The notes: a model not told the origin generated them from the sequence alone. 64,000 nucleotides of DNA from an uncultured Candidatus Rokubacteria bacterium (GCA_963747235.1 CAVVEU010000040.1:480001-544000), one strand, 5' to 3'. Numbered from the stretch's first letter, positions 2,698 to 19,780 are shown. Translations and numbers: made by a program.

Positions 2698-4417
2698 CTA
2701 GACCACCAGGCGCTCGTACATGCCCTGCACGTCGGCGGCGTGGAAGCGCGCCACGTGATTGGTCGGGGGCAGCGCCTCCGCGTAGAAGAACTCGGGCAGC
2801 TCGTCGTCCTTGGCGGTGAAGCCGGCCCGCTTGTTGAACTCGTGCTCGAGCTTGAGCGTCTCGCGGCCGAGGGCCTCGAAGAAGTCCTTGGTGAGGCTCG
2901 TGCCGTGGGCCGCGTTGATCGTGTCGGTGAGCCACTCGGTGTTCGGGATTGGTCACGCTCATGCCGAAGATGCAGAGGCCGAGCGAGTCGTTGGCCGCCA
3001 CCCGCGCCTGGTGGGCCACGCTCTGCTCCACGATGGCGGGCGTCTCCATCTCGCGGGTCTTGAGCCGCGGCAGGTTGCCCGCGGTGTGATCGGCGCCCTG
3101 GGCGGTGGCCATCATGGTGATGCCGGTGGCCTCGACCACGCGGGGATCGTAGGCGCTGATCGCCTGCTTCTTGATGACCGGCACGCGCTTGACCTTGTAG
3201 TGCTCGCCCACCCGCCAGGTGCCCTGGGCCCAGATGCGGCCCTTCTCGGAGCCCTGCCGGATCTCGGCCAGGCAGTCGGCCATGAACGCGCACGTCGCCG
3301 AACGCGCCGAGCCCCGCCTCCATCAGCACCGCGATCATGGCCCCGAGTCTCGATGGTGTCCACGCCCAGGTCGTTGGCGATGTAGTTCATCTGGGCGAGA
3401 TCGTCGGGATCGGTGAGCCCGCAGTTGGTGCCGAGCAGCCCGAGGGTCTCGTACTCGACCGGCGAGACCACTTCCTTGCCGTTCGCGTCCGCGTAGATGT
3501 TGCTGCACTGGATCACGCAGCCGGGCATGCAGGCGTGGGTGTGCTCGCCCCCGCGCGAGACGTTGAGCTGGCTGATGTACTCGCCGCCCATCTTGAACTT
3601 CTCGCCCGTGGAGACGTCCACCTGCTGGCCCACGCTGAAGTTGTTGACCGGCAGGCCGCCCAGGGTGTTCTGCAGATCCGCCATGCCCATGGTGCCGACC
3701 TTCGCGTAGAAGTTGGTCACCATGGAGTCGGCCTGCAGCATCTTCGCGTAGTTCTTGATGGCCGCGTTGACCTTCTTCGGATCGGAGAACGGCGGGATCT
3801 TGTCGAGGTCCACCACGACGGCCTTGACCTTCTTCGATCCCATCACCGCGCCCACGCCACCCCGGGCCGAGAGGCGCGCCGGGCGGCCGTCCTTGTCGCT
3901 GAACGCGATGCCCGCGATCAGGCCCTGGTACTCGCCGACCGGGCCGCAGAGCCCGATCGTGACCTTCTTGCCGTACTTGGCGTGCAGCATGTTCTGGGCC
4001 TCGAAGTTGCCCTTGCCGAGATACGGCGCCGCGTCGTCGAACTCGATCGTGCCGTCCTTCTTGAAGTGGATGACCACCCAGTCGGGCGAGGCGTCCAGCA
4101 GGGTGAAGCCGGCGATCTTCTGCTGGCCGAGCCCGTAGCTGAAGCTGCCGCCCCCGTTGGCCTCCTTGATGCCGCCGGTGAGCGGGCTCTTGCAGCCCAC
4201 GCTGGTGCGATTGGCGTTGGAGAAGCTGGTCCCCGCGAAGGGCCCGGCCGAGAAGATCAGCGGATTGGCCGGCGAGAGCGGATCCACCGTCGCGGCGCCC
4301 AGCTCGAGCAGGGTCTTGGCGATGAAGTAGCGGCCGGCCTTCACGATGGCCTCGCCTTCCAGCTCGCGCTTCGTGATCGTTCCGGTCGCTCAGGCGGATG
4401 TCGTAGTAGGTGCGCAT
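2698..4417 (-). CDS. aor: Aldehyde:ferredoxin oxidoreductase (W/Mo-pterin AOR family), several frameshifts
   Basis: KSPLTGGIKEANGGG, ARGGVGAVMGSKKVKAVV, CMPGCVIQC, EYET, NDLGVDTIE, DSLGLC motifs across frames; start MRTYYDIRL, end ...MYERLVV*. Confidence 0.88.
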
Positions 4418-4437
4418 CGCGTGCTCCTCTTGTTCGG

Positions 4438-5286
4438 TCAGGATGATGGAGGCTTGGCCTGCGGCTGCAGCTCGGCGCTCGTCGACTGCTCGCTCGCGCC
4501 CGGCTCGACCAGCTCGATACTCTCCGCGGGCGGCATCTGGGACGGCTCCAGCGGCCGCCGGGCCCGGAAGCGGATCTGGGGCAGCCGGCCCACCGCCTGG
4601 CGGAGGGCCTGCTCCCAGCGCATGCCGATCTTGATGAGGTCGGGGTCGCCGGCGGGAAACCGGCGCAGCCGGGTGATCTCGAGCTCGTCCACCTCGTAGG
4701 CGAGCAGGTCCACCGGCGGGCCCACCGTGACGTTCGAGCGCATCGTCGAGTCGAGCGAGAGCAGCGCGTACTTCGCCGCTTCCTCGAGCGTGGTGCGCTC
4801 GAAGCGGATGCCGCGGTCGAGGATCGGCCGGCCGTACTTGGTCTCGCCGATCTGCAGATACGGCGAGTCCACGCTCGCCTGCAGCGGGTTGCCCTGCGGG
4901 TAGATGATGAAGAGCCCGGGCGACTCGCCCCGCACCTGCCCGCCCAGCACCAGGTTCACGTTGAACTTGAAGTCGTCGCGCTCGAGCGCGTCGCGGTCCA
5001 TGTCGGAGACGCGGCGCACCTGCTCGCCGATGATCCGGGCCGCGTCGTAGAGGGACGGGGCCTGCGCGAGCCCCCGGCCCTGGTCGAAGTCCCGCTGGAT
5101 CAGGGTGATGATGGACTGGGTGCAGGAGAGGCTGCCGCTGCTGAGCAGGATGAACACGCGCTCGCCCGGCTGGACGAAGGTGTGCATCTTGCGCGCGACG
5201 TTGACCTGGTCGTGGCCCGCGTTGGTCCGGGAGTCCGACGCCATCACCAGCCCGTACTTGGTCCAGATCCCGACACAGTAGGTCAT
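4438..5286 (-). CDS. Anbu-type proteasome-like Ntn protease
   Basis: MTYCVG...SDSRTNAG-D, IYPQGN, QIGETKYGRPILDR, SLDSTMRSNVTVGPP; catalytic Thr directly after Met. Confidence 0.92.
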   Translation of the reverse strand: MTYCVGIWTKYGLVMASDSRTNAGHDQVNVARKMHTFVQPGERVFILLSSGSLSCTQSIITLIQRDFDQGRGLAQAPSLYDAARIIGEQVRRVSDMDRDALERDDFKFNVNLVLGGQVRGESPGLFIIYPQGNPLQASVDSPYLQIGETKYGRPILDRGIRFERTTLEEAAKYALLSLDSTMRSNVTVGPPVDLLAYEVDELEITRLRRFPAGDPDLIKIGMRWEQALRQAVGRLPQIRFRARRPLEPSQMPPAESIELVEPGASEQSTSAELQPQAKPPSS

Positions 5287-5413
5287 AAACCCCTTGAGTC
5301 TCTCTATATCCGCTCGGCTCGCCGTTGGCTGCACCTCGCCCAACGGGAGTCATGTTACCAGAACCGCGCGCGATCCGATTGACCGGCACACCAGCGAGGA
5401 TTACCGTGGCCTC

Positions 5414-6229
5414 ATGCGGATCCACATCGGGCACGAGCTCGTCTTCGAGGTGCCCCGACCCACGCCGATGCTCCTCATGCTCTATGTCCGACCGGAGGTG
5501 GCGTCGGCGCTTCAACAGCCGGAGGGCATCGTGGCCGACCCGGCCGGAAATGTCGAGAGCTTCGTGGACTGGTTCGGCAACCGAGCCGCTCGGATCGTGG
5601 CGCCCGCCGGCTCGCTCCGCCTCCGCTACGACAACGTCGTGGAAGACTCGGGCCGGCCCGACCCGACCATCGAGGGGCTGCCACTCCGGCCGATGGCGGA
5701 GCTGCCCGCCGAGAGCTGGCGGTATCTGCTCGCGAGCCGGTACTGCGAGGTCGACCGCATGTCGGCGATCGCCTGGGACCTCTTCGGCTCGACACCCGAG
5801 TCCTGGGAGCGCGTGCAGGCGGTGCTGGAGTGGGTGCACAACAACGTGACCTTCGGCTACCAGTACTCCCGGCCCACCAAGACCGCCTTCGACGTCTTCA
5901 CCGAGCGGCAGGGCGTCTGCCGGGACTTCCAGCACCTGGCCATCACCTTCCTGCGCGCGCTGAACATCCCGGCCCGCTACACCACCGGGTACCTGGGCGA
6001 TATCGGCGTGCCGCCGGATCAGAACCCCATGGACTTCTCGGCCTGGCTCGAGGCCTATCTGGGCGACGGCTGGCACACGCTGGATGCCCGGCACAACAAG
6101 CCGCGCATCGGGCGCGTGCTCATGGGCCGCGGCCGGGACGCGGTGGATGTGGCGCTGACCACCTCCTTCGGCAGCACCACCTTGACGAAGTTCACCGTCT
6201 GGACCAGCCAGCTTCCCGAGAGCGCATGA
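5414..6229 (+). CDS. Transglutaminase-like protein
   Basis: YLLASRYCEVD, GVCRDFQHLAITFLRALNIPARYTTGYLGD, DFSAWLEAYL, GRGRDAVDV. Confidence 0.92.
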   Translation: MRIHIGHELVFEVPRPTPMLLMLYVRPEVASALQQPEGIVADPAGNVESFVDWFGNRAARIVAPAGSLRLRYDNVVEDSGRPDPTIEGLPLRPMAELPAESWRYLLASRYCEVDRMSAIAWDLFGSTPESWERVQAVLEWVHNNVTFGYQYSRPTKTAFDVFTERQGVCRDFQHLAITFLRALNIPARYTTGYLGDIGVPPDQNPMDFSAWLEAYLGDGWHTLDARHNKPRIGRVLMGRGRDAVDVALTTSFGSTTLTKFTVWTSQLPESA

Positions 6230-7129: not shown

Positions 7130-8053
7130 GTGGCGAAAGACCTCAAGATCTGGATGAACGGGCGGCTCGTCCCCCAGGCCGAGGCCGTCCTGCCCGTGAA
7201 CAGCGCGGCCGTGTTCTACGCGACCAACGTGTTCGAGGGGCTGCGGGCCTACTGGAACGAAGCCGACGGCGAGGTCTACTGCTTCCGCCTCGGCGAGCAC
7301 TTCGCGCGCCTGCGCGAGTCCATGAAGATGATGCGCTTCACGGTCCCCTACACCGACATGGACCTCTACGAGGCGGTGCGGGAGGTGCTGCGCGGCAACG
7401 AGATCCACGAGGACGTCCACATGCACCTGGTGGCCTACGTGGCCGGTCCCGGGCTCGACGCGACCACCCCGACCGGGCTCTACATCAATCCCCGGCGGCG
7501 CGCCCGCATCATCGACGGCCATGGGCTCCGCTGCTGCATCACCTCGTGGCAGCGCACGAGCGACAACGCGATCCCGATTCGCCTCAAGTGCGGCGCCAAC
7601 TACCAGAACGGCCGGCTCGCCACGCTGCAGGCCAAGGCCGACGGCTACGACGCGCCGATCTTCCTGAACCAGCACGGCACGGTCGCGGAGGGCTCGGGCG
7701 CCACGTTCTTCATGGTGCGCCGCGGCCAGCTCGTGACGCCGCCGATCACCAGCGACATCCTCGAGTCCATCACCCGCACCACCCTGATCGACGCGGTGGC
7801 GCCGGCGCTGGGCATGGACGTGGTGGAGCGCGACATCGCGCGCACCGAGCTGTACGTGGCCGACGAGGCCTTCTTCTGCGGCAGCGGCTACGAGATCACC
7901 CCGATCCTCTCGGTGGACAAGTTCCCGCTCGGCGACGGCGGCGTCGGCCCCATCACCCAGCGGCTGCTCACCGCCTACATGAACGTGGTCCGGGGCGCGG
8001 ACCGGCGATTCCCCGAGTGGCGGATGCCGGTCTACAAGCCCGTCACGGTCTGA
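7130..8053 (+). CDS. Branched-chain amino acid aminotransferase family (PLP fold IV)
   Basis: VFEGLRAY, KCGANY, EGSGATFF, ILESITR, ADEAFFCGS. Confidence 0.9.
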   Translation: MAKDLKIWMNGRLVPQAEAVLPVNSAAVFYATNVFEGLRAYWNEADGEVYCFRLGEHFARLRESMKMMRFTVPYTDMDLYEAVREVLRGNEIHEDVHMHLVAYVAGPGLDATTPTGLYINPRRRARIIDGHGLRCCITSWQRTSDNAIPIRLKCGANYQNGRLATLQAKADGYDAPIFLNQHGTVAEGSGATFFMVRRGQLVTPPITSDILESITRTTLIDAVAPALGMDVVERDIARTELYVADEAFFCGSGYEITPILSVDKFPLGDGGVGPITQRLLTAYMNVVRGADRRFPEWRMPVYKPVTV

Positions 8054-8070
8054 TCCTTCGCCCCTGTCCT

Positions 8071-8109
8071 CCCTCTCCCCCGCCGAGGGGGAGAGGGCAG
8101 GGTGAGGGG
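8071..8109. repeat. REP-like repeat family B, copy 1
   Basis: Hairpin CCCTCTCCCC...GGGGAGAGGG plus 22-bp core GGGGAGAGGGCAGGGTGAGGGG identical to the copies at 62.1 and 62.8 kb. Confidence 0.85.
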
Positions 8110-8139
8110 GCTCCCCCGGTGAAGCAAGGAGACTCCCCC

Positions 8140-9762
8140 ATGCCCAACGCCGTGCGTGTCCTCGCGCTCCTCCTGATCCTCTCCGGCCTCGCCGCGCTGC
8201 CTGCCGCCGCGCAGGCCCCGGCGCCCACGGTGCGGGAAGGCAAGCCGGGCGGCATCCTGCGCATGGTGCTCCGCGAGGACCTGCCCCAGGGCTTCTCCGT
8301 CCACGAGACCGCGACCAACTCGGTCACGTGGCCGTCCATGCCCTGCTACAGCAACCTCGTCGTCTACGATCAGACCAAGCGGCTCGGGCGGATGGATACC
8401 ATCGTCCCCGAGCTGGCCGAGAAGTGGTCGTGGCAGGACAACTACCGGAACCTCGTCTTCTTTCTCAGAAAAGACGTCAAGTGGCACGACGGCCAGCCCT
8501 TCACCTCGAAGGACGTGAAGTTCACCTTCGACACCGTGCGCGAGGCCGCCGACGCCCCCGCCAAGCTGCGCATCAACCCGAGAAAAGAGTGGTACGCCAA
8601 CGTGGACGCGGTGGAGGCGCCCGATCCGCACACGGTGGTATTCCGCCTCAAGCGGCCGCAGCCCTCGCTGGTCGCCATGCTCGCCTCCGGCTACTCGCCG
8701 GTGATCCCGGCCCACGTGCCGATCGCCGAGCACCGCGCGCGCTGCATCGGCACCGGCCCCTTCAAGTTCAAGGAGTGGAAGCGCGGCCAGACGGTCGACC
8801 TGGTGCGCAACCCGGACTACTTCGTCAAGGGCCGGCCCTACCTCGACGGCGTGCGCTACACCGTCATCGTCGAGCGCGGCACGCGGGTCGCCGCGCTCCA
8901 GGCCAACCAGATCGACGTGGCCTACCCGGGCGAGACCACGCTCTCCATCGCGGAGCAGCTCAAGGGCGCGGTCCCGAGCATGGTCTTCACCGAGACCGCG
9001 AGCAACGTCAGCGAGAACCTCCTGCTCAACACCAAGAAGCCGCCCTTCGACAACGTCAAGGTGCGGCGCGCGCTCAGCTTCGCGATCGACCGCCGCGCCT
9101 ATACCCAGACCGTGCACCGCGGGGCCGCGGTCATCGGCGCCTCGCTGGCGCCCAAGCCGTGGGGCGTGTGGGGCCTGGTGGACAAGGATCTCAACCAGCT
9201 CCCGGGCTACGGGGGCGCCGCGGAGGGCCGCGCGACGGCCAGGAAGCTGCTGGCCGAGGCCGGGTTCGGACCGGGCAACCCGCTCAAGGTCGAGATCGTC
9301 ACGCGCGCCATCGCGATCTACCTCGACTTCTCGGGCTTCGTGGTCAGCGACCTGAAGCAGGTGGGCGTGGAGGCCACGCTCAAGCAGATCGAGACCGCGC
9401 AGTGGCACCCGATGGTCACGCGCCGCGAGTTCCACATCGGCGCCAATCTCACCGGCCTCGGGGTGGACGATCCCGACGCGAACTTCTACGAGAACTACGC
9501 GTGCGGCTCGTCCCGGAACTACGGGGACTATTGCAACGAGGAAGTGAGCAAGCTCATCGAGCAACAGTCGCAGGAGATCGATCAGAAGAAGCGCCTCGCC
9601 CTCGTCTGGCAGATCCAGAAGAAGCTCGAGGAGGACGCGGCCCGCCCGACCATGGGCTGGCGCACCGACCGCTTCGCGCACTACCCGTACGTGAAGAACC
9701 TGATCCCGAACCAGGTCACCTACAACTGCTGCCGGCTGCAGGAAGTCTGGCTCGACAAGTAG
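8140..9762 (+). CDS. ABC transporter substrate-binding protein, family 5 (peptide/nickel)
   Basis: Signal peptide; PELAEKWSW, LRKDVKWHDGQPFTSKDVKFTFD, GTGPFKF; AAGGAG RBS. Confidence 0.92.
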   Translation: MPNAVRVLALLLILSGLAALPAAAQAPAPTVREGKPGGILRMVLREDLPQGFSVHETATNSVTWPSMPCYSNLVVYDQTKRLGRMDTIVPELAEKWSWQDNYRNLVFFLRKDVKWHDGQPFTSKDVKFTFDTVREAADAPAKLRINPRKEWYANVDAVEAPDPHTVVFRLKRPQPSLVAMLASGYSPVIPAHVPIAEHRARCIGTGPFKFKEWKRGQTVDLVRNPDYFVKGRPYLDGVRYTVIVERGTRVAALQANQIDVAYPGETTLSIAEQLKGAVPSMVFTETASNVSENLLLNTKKPPFDNVKVRRALSFAIDRRAYTQTVHRGAAVIGASLAPKPWGVWGLVDKDLNQLPGYGGAAEGRATARKLLAEAGFGPGNPLKVEIVTRAIAIYLDFSGFVVSDLKQVGVEATLKQIETAQWHPMVTRREFHIGANLTGLGVDDPDANFYENYACGSSRNYGDYCNEEVSKLIEQQSQEIDQKKRLALVWQIQKKLEEDAARPTMGWRTDRFAHYPYVKNLIPNQVTYNCCRLQEVWLDK

Positions 9763-9774
9763 CCGGAGCGCCGG

Positions 9775-10512
9775 ATGCGGGTCGTCTTCTGGAACATCCG
9801 CGCGGGGGGCGGCGTGCGCGCCGCCGCCATCGCGCGGCAGATCGCGGCCTGGGAGGCGGACGCGGTGGCGCTGGCCGAGTTCCGCGGCACGCCGCCCAGC
9901 GGGGAGCTGGCCCGCGACCTGGCCCGGCTCGGGCTTCCCTACCAGTGGACCACCGCGGACCCCGCGCGGCCCGGCGTCAACGGCCTCTTGCTGGCCTCAC
10001 GCTGGCCGCTGCGCCGGCTCCGGCTCCCCTGCGCGCCCAGCGAGCCGTGCCGCTGGCTGCTGGCCCGCGTCCTGGCCCCGGAGCCGCTCGCGCTCGGCGT
10101 GATGCACGTGCCCAACCGGGTCGGCGGCCGCAAGTACCCGTTCCTCGACGCGGTGCTCACCACCGCGCGGCGGCGCTGGGCCACCCCCGCCCTGCTGGTC
10201 GGCGACACCAACTCGGGCCGCATCGGCCTCGACGAGGAGGTCCCCGCGTTCAACCGGATCGAAGACGGCTGGATGCGCGAGCTCGACGAGGCGGGCTGGA
10301 CCGACGCTTACCGCCATCTGCGGGGCACCGCGCGGGCCTACACCTGGTACTCCCCGAACGGCGGGAACGGCTTCCGGATCGACCAGGCCTTCCTCAATCG
10401 CGCGCTACAACCCCGCCTGCGCCGCTTCCGCTACGACTGGGGCCGACGGTCCCGTCTCACCGGCCGCCCCGCAAGCGATCACGCGGCCATGATCCTCGAC
10501 CTGGCCGGCTGA
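9775..10512 (+). CDS. Endonuclease/exonuclease/phosphatase (EEP, ExoIII-like) family protein
   Basis: WNI, LAE, GDTN, WTDAYR, YTWYS, RIDQAF and SDH motifs. Confidence 0.85.
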   Translation: MRVVFWNIRAGGGVRAAAIARQIAAWEADAVALAEFRGTPPSGELARDLARLGLPYQWTTADPARPGVNGLLLASRWPLRRLRLPCAPSEPCRWLLARVLAPEPLALGVMHVPNRVGGRKYPFLDAVLTTARRRWATPALLVGDTNSGRIGLDEEVPAFNRIEDGWMRELDEAGWTDAYRHLRGTARAYTWYSPNGGNGFRIDQAFLNRALQPRLRRFRYDWGRRSRLTGRPASDHAAMILDLAG

Positions 10513-10513
10513 C

Positions 10514-12028
10514 CTAGTCGCGAGGGCGGCGCACTCGCGCAGATGGGCCTGTTTCGCGCCCTCGCCCGGCGGGCGTCGCGTTGGCTTCCTGGCAGAGCCG
10601 CTTCCAGTCCGTGGCGTTCAGCGAGCAGTCGATCGTCGCGGTGTTCGCCTCCGCGACCCGGCCCGTCTTGCGGAGCAGCCGGATCTTGTGGGGCATCCAG
10701 CGCGGGGCGCCGCCGAAGGCCTTCGAGGCCTGGTCGGTCCACTCGAGCGCGGCGGGCAGGTTGCCGGCGCCCTCGTGGGCCACGATCAGGTCCTCGTACA
10801 CGTTGGGCACCGGCTCGCTCGAGGTGACCGCGCGCCGGAGCGCCTCGATGCCCTCGCGCGAGCGGCCGAGCGCGAAGGCCGCGCGGGCGAGCACCCAGTT
10901 CGGGTACGCGTCGGTGGCGGTGCGCCCGGTGATCGCGGTCCGCGCGGTGGCATAGGCCTCCTGGTTCTTGCCCTGGTCGAGCTGCTTCTTGGCCAGGAAC
11001 GCCTGCTTGTAGTTGCGCAGCACCAGGGCCACCTCGGGCCGGGCCCGCAGCGCCTTCCACGATGCGCTCGCGGGCTCCACCAGCGCGCGGGTGCCGTAGT
11101 GCCGCTCGAAGTACTCCGCGGCGTCGGTGATCCGCTCCTCGGTCTTGGGGTGGCTCACCGACACCGAGCTGAGCATCTTCTGGTACGCCATCCCCATCGC
11201 TTCGTTGACGTTCCGCTGCGAGGTCTGGCTCATGCGGTTCCAGAACGCCTCGTCGGTCTCCGCGGTGGCCTTCTCCCACGCCTGGAGCTTCTCGAGCATG
11301 GTCACCAGCGCGGGCGCCGACTGGCGGGTCTCCGCGAGCAGGTCCAGGCCGAGGAGATCCGCCTCCTTCTCCTGGCCGCGGCCCCACGCGGGCAGCACGA
11401 GCTTGTCGGTGGCGTCGGTGGCGAGCTGCACCTGCTGGATGGTCCGGGCGTCGCTCTTGGCCACCGTGCTCCGGCCGCTGAGCGCCGCCTTGGCGCCCAC
11501 GCCCATCTCGAAGAGGGCCTGCCCCTTCTTCTGCATGTCGCCGAGCACGTCGGAGGTGTGATGCTTGAGCAGCACGTGCGCGGTCTCGTGGGCGAGGATC
11601 GCCGACACCTCGTCCGCGTTCTCGAGCGTCTCGATCAGCCCCATCGCCAGGTACACGTTGCCGTCGGGGGTCGAGAACGCGACGAAGCCGGGATTGGCGA
11701 GGATCATCACCTTGCCCGGCACCCCGGTCTTGCCGACCGCCGCGATGAGGCGCGCCCGCGCCTCGTTCAGGTACTGCTCGAGGACCGCCGATCGCACGAA
11801 CCCGAGGCCGTCGCCCCGGTGCTGGGCGATGTCCTTCGCCTCGCCGATGGCCAGCGTGGACGGCTCGTAGGGACCGGGCTTGACGGTGGAGAACACGGTC
11901 ACGTTGGCGGGCTTGCCGCCCAGCCAGGTCGGCGCGGAGACACCGCTCCCCTGGCCGCCGCCCGCGCTCGTCCCCGCGCAGCCGGAGAGGACGAGCAGCG
12001 CCAGGCTCGCCGCGAGGCGACCGATCAC
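10514..12028 (-). CDS. M48 family metallopeptidase lipoprotein with C-terminal TPR-like region
   Basis: GTG start at 12028; lipobox LSGC; HETAH (HExxH), EKEADLLG, SHP motifs; helical TPR-like C-terminus. Confidence 0.88.
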   Translation of the reverse strand: MIGRLAASLALLVLSGCAGTSAGGGQGSGVSAPTWLGGKPANVTVFSTVKPGPYEPSTLAIGEAKDIAQHRGDGLGFVRSAVLEQYLNEARARLIAAVGKTGVPGKVMILANPGFVAFSTPDGNVYLAMGLIETLENADEVSAILAHETAHVLLKHHTSDVLGDMQKKGQALFEMGVGAKAALSGRSTVAKSDARTIQQVQLATDATDKLVLPAWGRGQEKEADLLGLDLLAETRQSAPALVTMLEKLQAWEKATAETDEAFWNRMSQTSQRNVNEAMGMAYQKMLSSVSVSHPKTEERITDAAEYFERHYGTRALVEPASASWKALRARPEVALVLRNYKQAFLAKKQLDQGKNQEAYATARTAITGRTATDAYPNWVLARAAFALGRSREGIEALRRAVTSSEPVPNVYEDLIVAHEGAGNLPAALEWTDQASKAFGGAPRWMPHKIRLLRKTGRVAEANTATIDCSLNATDWKRLCQEANATPAGRGRETGPSARVRRPRD

Positions 12029-12426
12029 TTGCACTCTCCGACCCCGCGGGTGGCCCCGGTCTTCGGGAGCTTGCCCGCCACCATGGCCCCGCACTCCCGG
12101 TCCCGGTCGATCACCACCGGCTTCTCGGTCTCGACCGCGAAGGCGCGGACGCAGTACTCCACGCGATCCACCTGCACCTTGAGGTAGAGCGGCGAGGCCG
12201 GATCGCGCGTGGCCATCCACGGGCCCTTGAAGTCCTTGCGGGCCACGTCCATCTGCGGCTTGCGCTTGTCCCGGTCCGGGTTGCAGTCGTAGAGCGTCAC
12301 CTTCTCGGTGCGCAGCCCCTTGACCGTCCAGGTCTCCTCGGCGGCCGCGGCGGGCCCGGCGCTCGTGCCCCCCAGGAGCAGCGCGATTCCGAGCGCCTCA
12401 CGCCACCGCATGCGTCGTCTCCCCAT
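12025..12426 (-). CDS. Small secreted hypothetical protein with four Cys and C-terminal GATRGVGECK
   Basis: Signal peptide; overlaps both neighbours; GGAG RBS upstream. Confidence 0.75.
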   Translation of the reverse strand: MGRRRMRWREALGIALLLGGTSAGPAAAAEETWTVKGLRTEKVTLYDCNPDRDKRKPQMDVARKDFKGPWMATRDPASPLYLKVQVDRVEYCVRAFAVETEKPVVIDRDRECGAMVAGKLPKTGATRGVGECK

Positions 12427-14191
12427 GAGTCGTCTCCTCGTGATCCCCTCGCACGCAGAGCGTGAAGAGCCAGTCCACCGCGGCGAGCACCCCCGGCCCG
12501 ACGCCCCACTCCTCGGGCCGCGGGTGGGCCCGGCGGAGCGCGAAGTACTTCCCGGCCGCCTCGTCGGCGTGCCGCATGAGATGCCGCGCGATCTCGAAGA
12601 AGGCCACGTACGCCACGATGTTGCGCGGACCCAGGTTGATCGGCGGCAGGAAGCTCACCACCGCCGCGCCCACGAAGAGCACCGAGGTCGCCACGAAGAG
12701 CACGTCGCGCGCGACCAGCGCCTTGTAGATGAAGTAGCCGGGCAGCACCACGAGCAGCAGGCCCGCCTCGACCCCGTACCGCGTGTCGACGAGCAGGAAG
12801 AGCACGGCGGCCACCGCCAGGATGCCGACGCCGAGGAACGAGACCCGCAGGAACTGTCTAGCTGAGACCGGCTGGGGCGGGCGGGTGGCGGCCAGGTGCA
12901 GGACCGCGACCACCCCCAGCAGCAGCGGGACCAGGAGCAGCACCGCCGACAGGCTCGTCGGGAAGGCGAACGTGATCCCGATCAGCAGCAGGGCCACCCC
13001 GAGCGCGAGCCACTTGATCGCGGGACGCACCGCGGCGAGCTGTTCGAGCAGGGCCCGGGCGAACGCGGGGGGCTTGTCCACCAGCAGCAGCAGCACGACC
13101 GTGAAGAGGAGGAGCAGGCCGTTGACCACGCTCGAGAGCGAGAGCCCGTGGTGATCGGCGCGCTTGTAGGCGGCCTTGAAGGTCACCAGGTTGTCGTAGG
13201 CCATCGCGTGGAGGTAGACGCCCGGAAGATCGTCGTAGACCGGCGAGATCACCCGGTCGCCCACCATCTGGAAGTTGCCCCCGTAGAAGATCGCCTTCTT
13301 CCCGACGGCCTTCTCCACCCCGGTGTTGTGGGGCCCGAGGAGGTGGAGCACCGAGATCGTGTTCGTGTGCGGGCACGTCCGCTTGGCCGCGAGCGGGTTC
13401 TCCCGGAGGATGTTGACGAGGTGGCGCAGCGCCCCCTCGCTGGAGCAGTGCATCCAGCTCTCGTTCAGGTCCGAGGCGAGATTGCCCCAGATGATCTCCA
13501 TCGGCTGGGCGTCCTTCGGCGAGAGCCGCGGCTTGGACTCGGCGCGGGCGTACACGTCGTACATCGCGAAGGCGGGGGTCCACGTGAACCCGGAGGTCCC
13601 CCCGCCGTGCGCGTAGGTGAGCACGCCGCTCACCCCACGCTCGGCGTCCATCTGCGCGTTCACCGCCTCCGCGCACTCGAGCAGCGCCGGGTTGACCCGG
13701 ACGCCCTCGTCGCGGCCTCCGCTCGGGGCGGGCGCGGCCAGGTAGACCGGCACCTTCCCGCGCGCGTTCAGATCGCAGATCGCGCGCGTGAGCAGCGCCT
13801 GATCCTCGGGGCTGCGCGCGTCGATGAAGGCGAAGTCCACGAACACCGCGCGCGGCCCGTAGCTGGCCAGCGCCTCGAGCACCTCGGCGTGGCGCGCGTA
13901 GGAAACGGGGAAGGACTCGCCGAGCTCGGCGAGGTTCTCCTCCCGGAACAGGACCACGGTGGTGTCGCGCTGCCCGGTGGCCGGGTACGCGTACTTCACG
14001 ACGCCGTTGACGATGGCCTGCGACCACGGCGTCAGGTGGAGCGAGATGCCGTGGAACATGAAGAGCATGGCGCCGACCGCGGAAAGGAAGAGGAACTGGG
14101 CGATGGCGCGCGCCGCCGGGCCCGGCCGCCGGACGCGGACGGCAGCGGACTCGATGACCGCCGATCCGTCTCCTACGAGGGGCTGACTCAC
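12398..14191 (-). CDS. CHASE2-domain multi-pass membrane protein without cytoplasmic output domain
   Basis: FPVSYARHAEVLEAL, PRAVFVDFAF, GKKAIFYG, DRVISPVYDDLPGVYLHAMAYDNL CHASE2 motifs, then multiple hydrophobic segments. Confidence 0.82.
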   Translation of the reverse strand: MSQPLVGDGSAVIESAAVRVRRPGPAARAIAQFLFLSAVGAMLFMFHGISLHLTPWSQAIVNGVVKYAYPATGQRDTTVVLFREENLAELGESFPVSYARHAEVLEALASYGPRAVFVDFAFIDARSPEDQALLTRAICDLNARGKVPVYLAAPAPSGGRDEGVRVNPALLECAEAVNAQMDAERGVSGVLTYAHGGGTSGFTWTPAFAMYDVYARAESKPRLSPKDAQPMEIIWGNLASDLNESWMHCSSEGALRHLVNILRENPLAAKRTCPHTNTISVLHLLGPHNTGVEKAVGKKAIFYGGNFQMVGDRVISPVYDDLPGVYLHAMAYDNLVTFKAAYKRADHHGLSLSSVVNGLLLLFTVVLLLLVDKPPAFARALLEQLAAVRPAIKWLALGVALLLIGITFAFPTSLSAVLLLVPLLLGVVAVLHLAATRPPQPVSARQFLRVSFLGVGILAVAAVLFLLVDTRYGVEAGLLLVVLPGYFIYKALVARDVLFVATSVLFVGAAVVSFLPPINLGPRNIVAYVAFFEIARHLMRHADEAAGKYFALRRAHPRPEEWGVGPGVLAAVDWLFTLCVRGDHEETTHGETTHAVA

Positions 14192-14327
14192 GCGACCTCC
14201 TACCGAAAGAGTTTCAACAGTCTAGACGGAAATCGGCCGCCGTCAAGTGAGCCGCGCCCCTTGCGACGCTCCCGGCCATGTGCTAGACGAGAGGGCCACC
14301 GACCCACCGATCCCCCGTGCCGGGAGA

Positions 14328-15290
14328 ATGAGCATGGACGTCACTGTCACCCCCCACCGCCGCACCGCCGTCGTGCTGCTGGCCGTCACGCTGCTGGCCG
14401 GCTGCGTGTCCCAGGACTACTACCGCGCCACCGGCCAGAGCGCCGCCGCCGGCGCCATGCAGGGCGTGCGGGAGGGGATTGCCGGCATCCAGGAGCCGCT
14501 CCGGCAGACTTTGCATGGGGCCCTCGTCGATGACCCGATGCTGAAGGACGCCGCCCGCGACATGACCCGGTCCGCGATGGAGGTCCTCGAGGCGCGCCTC
14601 GGCTCGCCCGAGATGCGCCGACAGGTGGACGCGCTCGTGGCCCAGGCGATGGCAAGCCTCCAGCGCGACAGCGACAAGACGGTCCGGGAGCTCGTCACGG
14701 CGGCGGGGGGCACGCTGGAGGCGGAGCTCCGCCGCGTGGCCACCGCCAGCATCCTGGCCGCGACCACCACCCTGCGTGACTCGCTCGAGCGGGACGTGAC
14801 CCCGGCCGCGCAGCGGCTGGCCAGCCGCATGGGGGAGGAGCTCGTGATCTCGGTGGTCAAGGGCCTGGAGGGCCCGCTCCAGAAGACCATGCTGCAGGCC
14901 GGGCGCAACATGTCGCAGGCCCTGATCAAGGGCGCGGCGGAGGGCGCCGAGGATCCGATCAACCAGGCCGGGTTCGGCGGGCTCACCAACCACGTGATGC
15001 TGCAGGCGGTGCGCGGGGCGCGGCAGGGCATGACCGAGGGCCTGCCCGACCAGGCGCAGATCGCGCTCATCTCCGGCATGGTCCTGCTCGGCGCGCTGGT
15101 GCTGGCGACCAGCGGCGGCCTCGGCTTCTTCTGGTGGCGCTACCAGCAGAGCGCCAAGACCCTGACCATCGTGGCCAAGAGCATCAACAATCATCAGTCG
15201 GGCGCGCTCAAGGACACGATCAAGAAGAGCACCCACGACAACTACGTCGGCCCCTGGTTCAGCAGCTTCCTGAAGCGCCGCGGCCTCTGA
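14328..15290 (+). CDS. Hypothetical lipoprotein with long helical region and C-terminal TM helix
   Basis: LLAGC lipobox; Ala/Leu-rich helical body; TM IALISGMVLLGALVLATSGGLGFFWW. Confidence 0.72.
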   Translation: MSMDVTVTPHRRTAVVLLAVTLLAGCVSQDYYRATGQSAAAGAMQGVREGIAGIQEPLRQTLHGALVDDPMLKDAARDMTRSAMEVLEARLGSPEMRRQVDALVAQAMASLQRDSDKTVRELVTAAGGTLEAELRRVATASILAATTTLRDSLERDVTPAAQRLASRMGEELVISVVKGLEGPLQKTMLQAGRNMSQALIKGAAEGAEDPINQAGFGGLTNHVMLQAVRGARQGMTEGLPDQAQIALISGMVLLGALVLATSGGLGFFWWRYQQSAKTLTIVAKSINNHQSGALKDTIKKSTHDNYVGPWFSSFLKRRGL

Positions 15291-15294
15291 TCCG

Positions 15295-16566
15295 GTGAGG
15301 CTCCCTCGCGTCGTCGCCGGCGCCCTCGCCGTCGCGATGCTGCTGTCCGTCCCGGCCCACGCCGGGCTCGCCGAGGACCTCGCGCGGTGCCAGAACACGG
15401 TGTGGCCGCGCTTCGCCGGCTGGTCGCTCTCGCGCCAGCAGGGGCCGGACAGCCCGCGGACGCCGGACGACTTCTACTGCCTGGCCCTCGGCCACTGGTC
15501 CGGCCAGGGCCCGTTCCAGGGCAAGGATCCGGTGAAGGCCGCCGGGTACGCGCGGACCGCGGCCGAGCAGAACCATCCGGGCGCGCAGGGCCTGCTGGGC
15601 TTCTTTCTGAGCAAGGGCATCGGCGTGAAGGCCGACCCGGCCGCCGCGGTCGACTGGTGGCGCAAGGGCGCGGCGCAGGGGCACGCGGACAGCCTCAACG
15701 CGCTCGCCGCCGCGTACGAGAGCGGCGAGGGCGTGGCCGCCGACCGGCAGGAGGCGGTGCGCCTCTATCGCCAGGCCGCGGAGCGCGGGAGCAAGGAGGC
15801 GCAGCAGCGGCTGGCCGCGCTGGGGCCGGCGAAGGCAGCGGCGGCCGGCCAGGCCGAGTTCGACGAGGGCACGCGTCTGTACAAGGCGGGCCAGCACGCC
15901 GCCGCGGCGAAGCAGTTCCTGCGCGCGGCCGAGCTCGGCCACGCGCGCGCGCAGCTCCAGATCGGCTACCAGTACAACTACGGCGAGGGCGTGCCGGTCA
16001 ACGCGAGCGAGGCGGTGAAATGGTACACGCGCGCGGCCGGCCAGGGCGACGCGACCGCGCAGTCCAACCTCGGCAGCATGTACGAGCACGGCGGAGGCGT
16101 GCGCGAGGACTGGGTCGAGGCCGCGCGCTGGTACGCCAGGAGCGCCGCCCAGGACCACGCGGCGGGCCAGTTCAGCCTGGGCCGCGCCTACCAGTTCGGC
16201 ATCGGCGTGCCGCAGAACCGCAAGCTCGCCATCGAGTGGTTCCAGAAGGCCTCGTTCCAGGGGCACGCGCAGGCGCGCTTCTTCGCGCAGCATCTCCTGA
16301 GCCGGGGGAACTTCATCGGCTTCCGCGACGAGCAGGAGGAGGCGCACGTGATCGCGGGGAAGCTGCGCACCGGGCTGCTGTGGGAGGAACCGGTCGGCAT
16401 GCTCTTCCACCACTCGGGCGAGCGGCTCGCCTACATCAAGAACCTGCGCTACCGCGTGGACCGCTACGAGGCCTACACGGCGTGGGTGCTGCGGCGGAAC
16501 GACTACGACGACTGCCAGCGCAGCAGCCGGTCGGGCTGCCGCGATCCGGGGCCGGCCCCGCCGTAG
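15295..16566 (+). CDS. Secreted Sel1-repeat (TPR-like) protein
   Basis: Repeated AQxxLGxxYxxGxGVxxDxxxAxxWYxxAA units; signal peptide. Confidence 0.9.
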   Translation: MRLPRVVAGALAVAMLLSVPAHAGLAEDLARCQNTVWPRFAGWSLSRQQGPDSPRTPDDFYCLALGHWSGQGPFQGKDPVKAAGYARTAAEQNHPGAQGLLGFFLSKGIGVKADPAAAVDWWRKGAAQGHADSLNALAAAYESGEGVAADRQEAVRLYRQAAERGSKEAQQRLAALGPAKAAAAGQAEFDEGTRLYKAGQHAAAAKQFLRAAELGHARAQLQIGYQYNYGEGVPVNASEAVKWYTRAAGQGDATAQSNLGSMYEHGGGVREDWVEAARWYARSAAQDHAAGQFSLGRAYQFGIGVPQNRKLAIEWFQKASFQGHAQARFFAQHLLSRGNFIGFRDEQEEAHVIAGKLRTGLLWEEPVGMLFHHSGERLAYIKNLRYRVDRYEAYTAWVLRRNDYDDCQRSSRSGCRDPGPAPP

Positions 16567-16570
16567 CGCG

Positions 16571-18743
16571 TCAGCCGGCCAGGAGCGCGTCCACCGCCCG
16601 CGGGTCCACCGGCTTGGCGAGGTGGACGTCGAAGCCGGCGTCACGCGTCTTCTGGCGATCCGCGTCGGTCCCGTAGCCGGTGAGCGCCACCAGCCGCGGC
16701 GAGCCCAGCTCGTCCATCATCCGCACCCGGCGCGCCACGTCGTAGCCGCTCATCCCGGGCAGCCCCAGGTCGAGGAACACCACGTCGGGGCGATAGCGCT
16801 CGATCTCGTCGAGCGCGCTCGGCCCGTCGTGCGCGGTGCGCACCTCGTGGCCGCGCAGGCGGAGGAAGAGGGCCAGCGAGTCGGTGGAGTCCTGGTGGTC
16901 GTCCACGACCAGGATGCGACGGGCCGGGCCCGCCGGGCCGTTCGCCGCCGCCGGCTCCGCCACCACCGCAGGCTCGGTGGCCTCCGCGGCCACGCGTGGC
17001 AGGCGAATCGTGAAGGCGCTGCCGAGCCCCGGCCCGGCGCTCGCCGCCTCCACGCGCCCCCCGTGCATCTCCACCAGCCGGCGCACGAGGGTCAGGCCGA
17101 GGCCGAGCCCGCCCTGCTTGCGCTCGAGCGAGCGGTCGGCCTGGATGAAGAGATCGAAGACGTGCGGCAGGAGCTCGGGATCGATGCCCACGCCCGCTGT
17201 CCTCGACCACGATCACGACCTCGTCCGCCTCGCTCCGCGCCCGGAGCCGGACCCGTCCGCCGTCGTCCGTGTACTTGATCGCGTTGTCCAGGAGGTTGCC
17301 GACCGCCTGGGCCAGCCGCGCCGGATCGCCGTCCACCCAGCCCGCGTCCTCGGGCACGTCCACCTCGAGCGCCTGCCCCCGGCTCTCCGCGGGCGGGCGC
17401 GCCGCCTCCACCGCCTGGGCCAGGACCTCGCGCACCGACACCGTCGCGCGCTGCAGCGTGATCTTGCCCGACGTGATGCGGGAGACGTCGAGCAGATCGT
17501 CCACGAGCCGGGTCATGAGCCCGACCTGCCGCTCGATGACGCCCGAGACCCAGCGCACCCGGTCGTCGCCCGTGCCGAGCAGGGCCAGCGTGTGGGCCGC
17601 GTTGCGGATGGGCGCGAGCGGGTTCCGCAGCTCGTGGGCCAGCATGGCGAGGAACTCGTCCTTGCGCCGGTCGGCGTCCTCCAGCGCGCGCTCCGTGCCC
17701 CGCCGCTCGGTGATGTCGCGGAAGACCAGCACCACGCCCACGATGCGGCCGCGGGTGTCGCGGATCGGCGCGCCGCTGTCGTCGATGGGCAGCTCGCGGC
17801 TGCCGTCCTTGGCGATCAGCACGGTGTGGTTGGCGAGGCCCACGATCGTGCCGAGGCGGATCACCTGCCTCACCGGGTTCTCCACCGTCTCGCGCGTCGC
17901 CTCGTTGACGATGCGGAACACCGTGTCCAGGGGCTGGCCCAGCGCCTCGCCGCCCCAGCCGGTGAGGGCCTGCGCCACCGGGTTCAGCAGGGTGATCCGC
18001 CCCTGCGCGTCGGTCACCACGACCGCGTCGCCGATGCTGGTGAGCGTGGTGCGGAAGCGCTCGCGCTCGGCGTGCAGCACGTCGGCGGCCCGCTGCCGGG
18101 CGGCCAGGTTGCGCGCGACGAGCGCGATGACCATCGTGACCAGCACGAGCCCCAGCCCGAGCCCGACGATCGTGGTCGCGAGCGCGGTGCGGGTATTGGC
18201 GCGCGAGGCCGCGTCCCGCCGGGCGAGCAGCGCGCGCTCGAGCTGCTGCATGCCGTAGATCTCGTCGCGGATCAGGTCCATCAGGCGCTTGCCCTCGCCC
18301 TGGAGCAGGTACTGCCGGGACAGCGTGAGGGCCCGGGTCTTGTCGGGCTCGGCCTGGAAGCGGTCGATCCCCCGCCGGAGCACCGCCAGCCGCTCGGCGG
18401 TGAGCTGCTCGAGCTTGAGCGCGTGCGCGGTCTGCGGGGGGTTGTCGATGGTGAGGTCGCGAAGCCGGTCGAGCTGCCCCCGGATTCGCGCCACCGCCTG
18501 CTCGTACGGGTCGAGGTAGGGGCGTTCTCCGGTCAGGAGATAGCCGCGCTGGCCGGTCTCGGCGTCCTTGAGGGTGGAGACCACCTGCTCGAGCTGGCCC
18601 AGCACCTCGTGGGTGTGGGACACCCACTGCACGCTGGTGGCGACCTCGCGGATATTGTGCAGCGTGAGGACCGCGTCCGTCAGGAGCGCGGCGACCAGCA
18701 GGACGATCGCGACGGTCTGGCCGCGCGTCAGGCTCCAGGGCAT
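16571..18743 (-). CDS. Hybrid sensor histidine kinase CHASE3-PAS-HisKA-HATPase-REC (frameshift ~17195)
   Basis: DAETGQRGYLLTG (CHASE3), PAS, LAHELRNPL, NLLDNAIKYT, GGLGLGL, receiver LDLGLPGMSGY. Confidence 0.9.
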
Positions 18744-18765
18744 GCGAGGCGTCCCCGCGAGCGCG

Positions 18766-19780
18766 TCAGCGGCCGCCCGCGAGGGCGGGCGCCACCTCGG
18801 CCAGGAACCGCTTGAGCTGGCCGCGCTGGTCCCAGGACGTGAGCCGGAGCGCGATGTGGCCGAGGCCCGCCTCCGCGTAGTCGCGCAGCTCGGCGATGCA
18901 CTGGGCCGGGCTCCCCGCCACCGTCCAGCCCTCGACGAAGGCGGGCGAGAACTTGGACGTGTAGTAGGTGTCGAGGAACGCCTTGCTCTCCTCGAGCGCC
19001 CGCCGCGCGGTCCTCGTTGATGTTGATGTTGTGGTAGAGCGCGCTGCCGAGGGCGTCGGGGTTGCGGCCTTCCTCCCGCGCCATCTTCGCGATCCGCGCC
19101 CACTGCTCGCGGAACTGGGCCGGGCTCACCTTGTTGGTCATCCAGCCGTCGGCGTAGCGGGCCACGCGGCGGAGACCGCGCTCCACCGCCGCGTCGGAGG
19201 CGCTGGCCCCGCCCTTCCAGGTCAGGCCGGTCGGGTTGCTCGCGATCCAGATCGGGCACGGCTGCTGCGCCGGCCGGGGCTCGATCTTGACGCCCTCGAA
19301 CTGGTAGAACTCGCCCTGGTGCGAGACCTTCTCGCCGCTCCAGACCTTCCGGAGGATCTGGATGCCTTCCTCCAGGCGGCCCACGCGCTCGCTCGAGCGC
19401 ACGCCCATGACCTTGTGCTCGAGCGCCTGCGCGGCGCTCTGCTCGTCGGGCCCGCCCAGGCAGACCGCCAGCAACGCGCGACCGCCCGAGATCACGTCGA
19501 GGCTCGCCCACTGCTGCGCGAAGAGCAGCGGGTGACGGTGCACGAAGGTGGCGAGGCAGCCGACCGCGAGCTTGAGGCGCGAGGTGGCGCCGGCCAGGGC
19601 GGCGAGGAGGGCCACCGCCTCCAGGCGCGGCTTGGCCAGGAGGCTGTCGCCGACCCAGAGCGTGTCGAAGGCCCCCGACGTCTCGGCCTGCTGCGACAGC
19701 TCGATCAGATCGCGGGCCTGGATCGCGCCCAGCACCACCGCTCGATTCGCCAGGATCAGCCCGAAGGATGCGCGCGCCAT
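18766..19780 (-). CDS. LLM-class flavin-dependent oxidoreductase (frameshift ~19005)
   Basis: FDTLWVGDS, WASLDVISGGR, RVARYADGW; C-terminus continues in another frame. Confidence 0.87.

Follow-up and report, generated by a model that had tools for sequence, protein, structure and literature searches.

Three overlapping genes on the minus strand of a 64,000-nucleotide stretch of DNA from an uncultured Candidatus Rokubacteria bacterium (GCA_963747235.1 CAVVEU010000040.1:480001-544000; hereafter, the window, meaning the whole stretch) encode a membrane protein with a CHASE2 sensor domain (gene 1), a small, probably secreted protein (gene 2) and an M48 metalloprotease lipoprotein (gene 3). An open reading frame (ORF) scan retrieved them at 12398-14191, 12025-12426 and 10514-12028, matching the preliminary description of this locus, which had reported three minus-strand genes overlapping at 12398-12426 and at a GTGA at 12025-12028. 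The TGA stop codon of the CHASE2 gene (12398-12400) falls within the small gene, which begins with an ATG at 12426, giving a 29-nt overlap, and the GTGA is shared between the stop of the small gene and the start of the M48 gene (4-nt overlap). Each start codon is preceded by a Shine-Dalgarno-like sequence: AGGAGG 5 nt upstream of the GTG of the CHASE2 gene, GAGGAG 7 nt upstream of the ATG of the small gene and GGAGAG 5 nt upstream of the GTG of the M48 gene. Their third-position GC contents (0.95, 0.94 and 0.91, respectively) are typical of real genes at the ~71% GC of the window. We conclude that they constitute a genuine operon of three translationally coupled genes in a Methylomirabilota/Rokubacteria genome. 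Given the predicted features of the three products, which are listed in Table 1, the best explanation is that all of them face the periplasm.

The region 10300-14400 was scanned for transcription signals. One sigma-70-like site was found in it, upstream of the operon, against 0.1 expected in shuffled sequences, together with no terminator-like sites. The M48 gene and a convergent endonuclease/exonuclease/phosphatase (EEP) gene end one base apart (10512-10516), again with no terminator-like site between them. No paralogues of the operon genes were found elsewhere in the window. We also considered a role in anti-phage defence, which was discarded, as the three proteins and two neighbours matched 0 PADLOC families at E≤0.01.

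Table 1. Features of the CHASE2-small protein-M48 operon and its immediate surroundings, in window coordinates (aa, amino acids; TM, transmembrane segment; TPR, tetratricopeptide repeat; AF2, AlphaFold2)
Feature	Coordinates	Strand	Basis or remark
Gene 1, CHASE2 membrane protein, 597 aa	12398..14191	-	N-terminal TM, periplasmic CHASE2, 6-7 helices and short tail (predicted)
CHASE2 domain, residues 56-370	13082..14026	-	Pfam
Extra membrane module, residues 372-545	12557..13078	-	No Pfam, Atlas or PDB match
Loop LPPINLGPRN, residues 515-524	12620..12649	-	Most conserved stretch of the gene 1 protein
Gene 2, small, probably secreted protein, 133 aa	12025..12426	-	Undescribed family
Signal-peptide-like N-terminus, residues 1-29	12340..12426	-	Basic and hydrophobic stretches followed by AAA
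Beta-barrel core, residues 30-100, weakly SH3b-like, with Cys48/Cys92	12127..12339	-	AF2
C-terminal loop Cys112...KTGATRGVGE-Cys132, invariant Arg127	12031..12093	-	Family signature
Gene 3, M48 zinc-metalloprotease lipoprotein, 504 aa, TPR-like C-terminal half	10514..12028	-	Pfam
Lipobox LSGC, residues 14-17	11978..11989	-	Pattern match after hydrophobic stretch
HETAH zinc-binding/catalytic motif, residues 147-151	11576..11590	-	H147, E148 and H151 invariant in 47 sequences
QEKEAD, residues 219-224	11357..11374	-	E220 invariant (47 relatives)
Sigma-70-like promoter TTGACG-16-TAGACT	14219..14246	-	Upstream of the operon; consensus match only
Divergent 347-aa ORF	14247-15290	+	Lipobox LLAGC, C-terminal hydrophobic segment, no Pfam family

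Residues 56-370 of the protein encoded by gene 1 match the Pfam CHASE2 profile (PF05226) with 52.3 bits (cut-off 26.3); apart from this, Pfam and NCBIfam searches detected nothing in the protein. Its hydropathy profile displays one N-terminal segment before CHASE2 and six clear hydrophobic segments after it, to which the AF2 model (mean predicted local distance difference test score, pLDDT, 70; predicted template modelling score, pTM, 0.68) adds a long amphipathic helix at residues 522-555. By the positive-inside rule, the favoured topology has eight passes through the membrane and a 52-aa tail in the cytoplasm. The domain searches and the hydropathy profile agree with what had been proposed for this protein, namely a CHASE2 domain followed by about 6-7 TM segments and a short tail, with no kinase, cyclase or GGDEF domain. 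The last 218 residues matched 0 Pfam families at E≤10. Structural comparisons were equally negative: the extra helices had no usable look-alike in the Atlas, and a Foldseek search of the PDB with the full model gave 0 matches at E≤0.001. A sequence-profile search of the PDB returned nothing below E 0.6, and no solved CHASE2 structure was found by sequence search. The possibility that the extra helices arose from a duplication of TM2-4 was rejected (hhalign probability 0.4%).

Relatives of the gene 1 protein were retrieved in a search open to proteins of 328-1045 aa. Among the best 120 of 257, which span 399-638 aa and 51-93% identity, CHASE2 is the sole domain in 120/120. The lack of an output domain is thus a family trait and not a local loss; the alternative raised in the preliminary description, that orthologues would carry an output domain missing only here, does not apply to these best 120 of 257 relatives. 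We then compared conservation along the protein in 58 sequences. Four cysteines of the CHASE2 domain (Cys139, Cys173, Cys249 and Cys273) are invariant. The mean majority fraction is 0.74 over the CHASE2 domain, 0.89 over TM6, 0.84 over TM7 and 0.83 over helix 8, and reaches 0.99 in the loop LPPINLGPRN. By this measure, it is the extra membrane module, and not the sensor domain, that is under the tightest constraint. According to the positive-inside rule, the loop is predicted to face the periplasm.

The product of gene 2 contains four cysteines (Cys48, Cys92, Cys112 and Cys132) and ends in ECGAMVAGKLPKTGATRGVGECK. Its translation agrees with the 133-aa, four-cysteine protein and C-terminus originally described, and its secretion is suggested by a signal-peptide-like pattern. 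It matched no Pfam or NCBIfam family, and sequence comparison with the PDB gave chance-level matches only (best E 0.15). A first search retrieved 57 relatives, and a subsequent profile search of 1.84 billion representatives retrieved 87 at E≤1e-3, 57 of them at E≤1e-10, most being 115-145 aa long. We aligned 58 representatives, with 23-86% identity to the window protein. An N-terminal hydrophobic 10-mer is present in 57/58. Only Arg127 and Cys132 are invariant in the alignment, and Cys112, Gly130 and Val98 are at least 90% conserved. The pattern C-x(n)-[AT]-[TV]-R-G-x-G-E-x-C was found in 71/87 representatives; truncated entries and chimeras are among the 16 that lack it. Conservation within the protein peaks in the loop (0.57, and 0.68 for the motif, against 0.41 for the core). 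The conservation of the GATRG tail, which had been put forward as a test of the original idea, was recovered in the form of a C..RG..C loop that serves as the family signature. Cys48 and Cys92 covary: both are present in 28 of the 58 representatives, neither in 30, and one alone in 0. Because these two cysteines are present or absent together, disulfides 48-92 and 112-132 are probable. On these sequence grounds, the arginine-loop protein founds an undescribed family.

The AF2 model of the small protein is confident over the core (pLDDT 84-90 over residues 31-100). Confidence drops from residue 101 onwards, with block means of 63, 48, 47 and 42 and values below 50 at residues 113-121 and 127-133, which suggests that the C-terminal loop is flexible. 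The top Foldseek matches of the core in the PDB are bacterial SH3-like domains, with E-values of 0.028-0.8 (none at E≤0.001), probabilities up to 0.99 and TM-scores of 0.3-0.4. An Atlas look-alike at rank 26, a single cluster, carries SH3_3 (0.91). No SH3 family was matched in Pfam at E≤10 by 23 members of the family. Some relatives (P0058, P0060, P0181, P0185, P0187, P0192 and P0197) bear a 25-40-aa Pro/Gly-rich extension after the last cysteine, recurrently ending in a PAGTPG-x-RP-like sequence; the window protein has no such extension.

Gene 3 sits inside a longer ORF (10514-12220, 568 aa). We preferred the GTG at 12028 as its start because its relatives are ~490 aa long. Its product scores 78.2 bits against Pfam Peptidase_M48 (PF01435, cut-off 20.3) over residues 87-304, and at least 90% of 47 relatives have the lipobox cysteine, Cys17. 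In the preliminary description, it was an M48-TPR lipoprotein with an intact HExxH. The lipobox, the M48 domain and the HETAH motif were confirmed, while the TPR assignment stays below threshold: TPR_16 scores 24.8 bits against a cut-off of 32.7, other TPR models give E-values of 0.036-0.045, and a few relatives carry a precomputed PF13432. The region around Glu220 aligns with NEQEAD of Escherichia coli BepA (6sar), and Glu220 is likely the third zinc ligand. The family also keeps a C-terminal pair of cysteines, Cys468/Cys479 (47 relatives). The window protein is ~12 residues longer at its C-terminus than the proteins of the other loci described below, which end in ...TPAGRAAR. In one of these loci (L008, 8522-9882), the M48 gene is split between two frames (residues 33-137 and 139-486), by a frameshift or an error in the assembly of the metagenome-assembled genome.

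We scanned GTDB species genomes with the small-protein alignment, which yielded 12 loci, and placed the accompanying genes by tblastn. The CHASE2, small and M48 genes occur in the same order in 12/12, as expected if, as originally suggested, the three belong together; all these loci come from one lineage. Contig ends cut the CHASE2 gene in L002, L006 and L007 and the M48 gene in L001 and L005. The overlap of ~29 nt between the CHASE2 and small genes recurs in L001, L004, L005, L008, L009 and L010, and tight small/M48 junctions, including 4-nt overlaps, recur in other loci. The most divergent locus, L007 (44% identity in the CHASE2 protein and 53% in the M48 protein), keeps the trio with a changed downstream flank. 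There, a Tle1-like (DUF2235) alpha/beta hydrolase gene (3210-4460, minus strand; 243 bits in Pfam) directly follows the trio and is itself followed by a gene for a luciferase-like oxidoreductase, in place of the EEP gene of the window. Chimeric database ORFs also connect the three products: P0204 joins the C-terminus of the CHASE2 protein to the small protein, and P0235 and P0264 join the small protein to the N-terminus of the M48 lipoprotein. Additionally, matching longest-contig sizes, compared by eye, pair 7 small/CHASE2, 4 small/M48 and 11 CHASE2/M48 clusters, which is circumstantial evidence. The CHASE2 protein and a distant relative of the small protein (P0200) had no tblastn match in 72,556 plasmids.

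Upstream of the operon, the divergent 347-aa ORF encodes a predicted lipoprotein; it adjoins the CHASE2 gene in 9 loci and is a possible fourth component. A Sel1-repeat gene beyond it (15295-16566; Pfam Sel1, 141.6 bits) was considered as part of the unit and rejected, being absent from 12/12 loci. Other syntenic neighbours are a solute-binding protein gene, for which the synteny was detected at the DNA level only (window 7546-9762, SBP_bac_5), and an aminotransferase gene. In L004 and L009, the aminotransferase is 92-95% identical in protein sequence to that of the window; L005 ends before this gene, and its up347 gene and CHASE2 protein show 64% and 52% identity, respectively. The records of the other 9 loci name Methylomirabilota or Rokubacteria, whereas those of these three are labelled Nitrosotalea, Dormiibacterota and Verrucomicrobiia; the contigs of the three are probably mis-binned Methylomirabilota/Rokubacteria. 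Further upstream in the window (16571-18800, minus strand) lies an apparently frameshifted hybrid histidine kinase with CHASE3, PAS, HisKA, HATPase_c and receiver domains. Positions 1-48 of HATPase_c fall in ORF 16641-19511, and positions 48-109, together with the receiver, in ORF 16571-17191; the frame break, near 17190, could be a sequencing error or the mark of a pseudogene. On the other side of the operon, and unrelated to it, a proteasome-subunit-like ORF (4438-5343, minus strand; 26.9 bits) and a transglutaminase-like ORF (5294-6229, plus strand) are arranged back to back.

The preliminary description had proposed predicting the structure of each pair of proteins as a multimer. The pair that we modelled consisted of the CHASE2 protein at full length and the small protein in its mature form, each supplied as a custom alignment. 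The pair obtained a complex score of 0.43 (0.32, 0.43 and 0.59 in the separate runs), whereas the best of three controls obtained 0.00. At least 64% of contacts are shared between runs, the pLDDT of the partner is at least 65, and no interface is given. The mark set for this score is reached by 116/157 solved complexes and 2/215 mismatched pairs, a calibration that is roughly valid with custom alignments; those that pass at 0.60 or below comprise 18/157 solved complexes and both passing mismatches. The modelling thereby weakly supports the idea that the small protein binds the CHASE2 protein, which has about as much chance of being right as of being wrong, and no more. For this pair, then, the prediction gave weak support to the original suggestion.

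None of the three outcomes that the preliminary description had named as refuting was observed, and its interpretation is partly supported. Considering these data together, we propose that the operon encodes a three-part module facing the periplasm. The small protein would be the periplasmic partner of the CHASE2 protein, either a co-receptor or an encoded ligand, and its exposed arginine loop would either be acted on by the M48 lipoprotein or hold it. In this way, cleavage would set the amount of small protein that occupies the sensor, and the signal would reach a partner by way of the conserved helix bundle and the tail, or be executed in the membrane itself. The sequence data show how the operon is built, that it is conserved, which signatures its families carry, that the catalytic residues are intact and that an output domain is absent; the proteolysis of the loop, the direction of its effect and the nature of the output are inferences. 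Taken as a whole, with the small protein partnering CHASE2 and the protease acting on the loop, the proposal is tentative: it may be correct, although we would sooner expect at least some part of it to fail. Its more specific form, close to the one originally envisaged, in which the arginine loop is an encoded CHASE2 ligand made or destroyed by the M48 protease and the helix bundle, with its LPPINLGPRN loop, is a new kind of membrane output (a gated pore or a docking platform), we regard as unlikely.

Several points weigh against the three-part module. The operon contains no gene for a cytoplasmic partner, a regulator or a second-messenger enzyme, which makes 'signalling' an assumption. The CHASE2 domain is usually regarded as a receptor of small molecules, according to the excerpted text of PMC8195603. 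The CHASE2/small pair is the sole one modelled, and scores in the band of 0.43 are more often wrong than right unless the pair is likely beforehand. The topology of the extra helices comes from hydropathy and from an AF2 model with a mean pLDDT of 70. In addition, all 12 loci belong to one lineage (Methylomirabilota/Rokubacteria, as judged by flank similarity), and their flanks are syntenic too, with the divergent lipoprotein gene and the EEP gene each present in 9 loci; for this reason, co-occurrence separates poorly from common descent. The case for the trio as a unit is therefore weaker than it looks and is made by L007 and the same-strand coupling.

This single-lineage distribution is what would be expected if the three genes were co-inherited neighbours with separate functions, the CHASE2 protein being an orphan or a decoy, the M48 lipoprotein serving in housekeeping and the small periplasmic protein being unrelated to either. 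The synteny of the entire neighbourhood, including the divergent lipoprotein, the EEP gene, the solute-binding protein and the aminotransferase, fits such an explanation, as does the fact that 7/44 blindly picked neighbour pairs pass the complex test. However, the overlapping, coupled starts are kept across loci in which the small proteins share 43-48% identity, the trio persists in L007 despite its changed flank, and some flanking genes, such as the Sel1 gene, turn over while the trio stays. The pass of the CHASE2/small complex, albeit weak, with its controls at 0.00, also speaks against unrelated functions, and we consider mere co-inheritance quite improbable. Nor do we give much credit to the possibility that the CHASE2 protein is the substrate of the protease, with the small protein as a ligand-dependent adaptor or shield and the released or remodelled bundle and tail carrying the output, which seems to us very unlikely. 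The three products are all extracytoplasmic or membrane proteins of one operon, and the near-invariant LPPINLGPRN loop and conserved late helices of the CHASE2 protein would suggest a site of specific recognition or function. Metacaspase-CHASE2 fusions in cyanobacteria, described in the excerpts of PMC3501461 and PMC2853523, offer a precedent for pairing this domain with a protease, but the known fusions have cytoplasmic caspase outputs instead of periplasmic metalloproteases. Moreover, no sigma-factor, anti-sigma or DNA-binding domain was detected in the CHASE2 protein.

A further alternative is an envelope quality-control module, in which the small protein would be an inhibitor, chaperone or adaptor of the M48/TPR protease, with its loop in the active site, and the CHASE2 protein would anchor or regulate the protease/small pair, or be its client. 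The small and protease genes overlap by 4 nt and are linked elsewhere by chimeric ORFs, and a compact beta core with a flexible, disulfide-bracketed loop that bears one invariant basic residue would suit such a role. Small beta proteins that block metalloproteases include the serralysin inhibitors (AprI/Inh) and SMPI of Streptomyces, and small periplasmic inhibitors can be encoded next to secreted metalloproteases; the TPR lipoprotein NlpI is an adaptor of the protease Prc. Among solved structures, the protease of the operon is closest to BepA (E about 1e-9), an outer-membrane-protein quality-control protease, and the operon has neither an output domain nor a regulator. Against this, the CHASE2 gene is just as tightly coupled to the small gene, through the 29-nt overlap, and the weak pass of the CHASE2/small pair over its controls points to the sensor and not only to the protease. 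Besides, the NCBIfam scores of the protease are far under the BepA and LoiP cut-offs, so that the function of BepA is not transferable. A quality-control role is thus on the unlikely side, though it deserves some weight beside the three-part module.

Whatever its function, the operon is undescribed: it combines two known domain families in unusual form with one new small-protein family. Two of its elements would represent undescribed families in their own right, namely the arginine-loop small protein (87 representatives) and the conserved four-helix module that replaces the enzyme output of gene 1. CHASE2 is a widespread bacterial sensor domain, for which this operon offers a concrete candidate protein partner; the excerpts of PMC13001267, PMC8195603, PMC3501461, PMC2853523 and PMC5587647 name no directly bound CHASE2 ligand. 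If both the binding and the cleavage proposed for the three-part module were true, the operon would provide a handle on CHASE2 sensing and on signalling without a cytoplasmic enzyme. If the more specific form of the proposal held as well, the operon would encode a signalling device of the envelope that is complete in itself and gated by a protease, and would supply the first partner defined for any CHASE2 domain. If the binding and the cleavage were not borne out, it would be a lineage-restricted envelope operon of uncultured soil bacteria.

In the literature searched, we found no description of CHASE2 with an M48 protease, of the small protein or of the operon. Parallels with known systems can nevertheless be drawn for each component. 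The closest arrangement of genes is that of the cyanobacterial CHASE2/DUF928(/CHAT) clusters, in which a CHASE2 gene also neighbours a gene whose secreted product has no assigned function; the CHASE2/DUF928 cluster of Nostoc punctiforme is a single report (excerpt of PMC5587647). In our operon, the protease is a periplasmic M48 metalloprotease and not CHAT. The preliminary description had pointed to a link with DUF928 proteins carrying a G-x-T/S-R-G motif, which was not supported: no DUF928 match was obtained for 23 members of the small-protein family at E≤10, with the proviso that the HMMER filters may drop very weak matches, and kinship with DUF928 was rejected. In its core fold, the small protein may weakly resemble the SH3b domains of cell-wall hydrolases (the C-terminal domain of TagH, NlpC/P60, LytB and phage endolysins), which provide the top matches; the disulfide-closed arginine loop has no counterpart in them.

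The M48 lipoprotein is similar to BepA (YfgC) of E. coli in its architecture, with a TPR-like helical half after the M48 domain, and in the alignment of its HExxH and downstream Glu. BepA (6sar) is its best solved match (E 1.1e-9), which covers the protease domain only. It differs from BepA in being a lipoprotein with the Cys468/Cys479 pair, and it scores 45.8 bits against the NCBIfam BepA model (NF052400, cut-off 570) and 38.2 bits against that of LoiP (NF052399, cut-off 365). The role of BepA in outer membrane protein assembly is accordingly not one to be transferred to gene 3. As for the overall logic of the proposed module, it would share with the ExoR-ExoS/ChvI system a secreted protein that binds the periplasmic domain of a sensor and is cleared by proteolysis in the periplasm. 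ExoR contains Sel1 repeats and pairs with a histidine kinase as its sensor, whereas a small SH3b-like protein and a sensor lacking a kinase would take these places here, so that the resemblance would be a functional analogy only.

The canonical CHASE2 receptors, such as CyaD1, CyaD2 and CyaK of Sinorhizobium meliloti, Dgc2 of Leptolyngbya and the metacaspase-CHASE2 protein of Trichodesmium, share with the gene 1 protein an extracytoplasmic CHASE2 domain with TM segments before and after it. In the excerpts of PMC3501461 and PMC2853523, these receptors have one TM segment before the domain, three after it and a cytoplasmic enzyme. The gene 1 protein has one helix before the domain, and six clear segments plus the amphipathic helix after it; in place of a cyclase, kinase, GGDEF or caspase domain, it would carry four further helices and the 52-aa tail. 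It also differs from them in its genetic setting, sharing an operon with genes for a protease of the periplasm and for a secreted protein dedicated to it. A protein input to CHASE2 has a parallel among these same receptors: according to the excerpted text of PMC13001267, the CHASE2 cyclases of S. meliloti, which are among the best studied, respond to a signal of protein nature through the outer-membrane protein NsrA.

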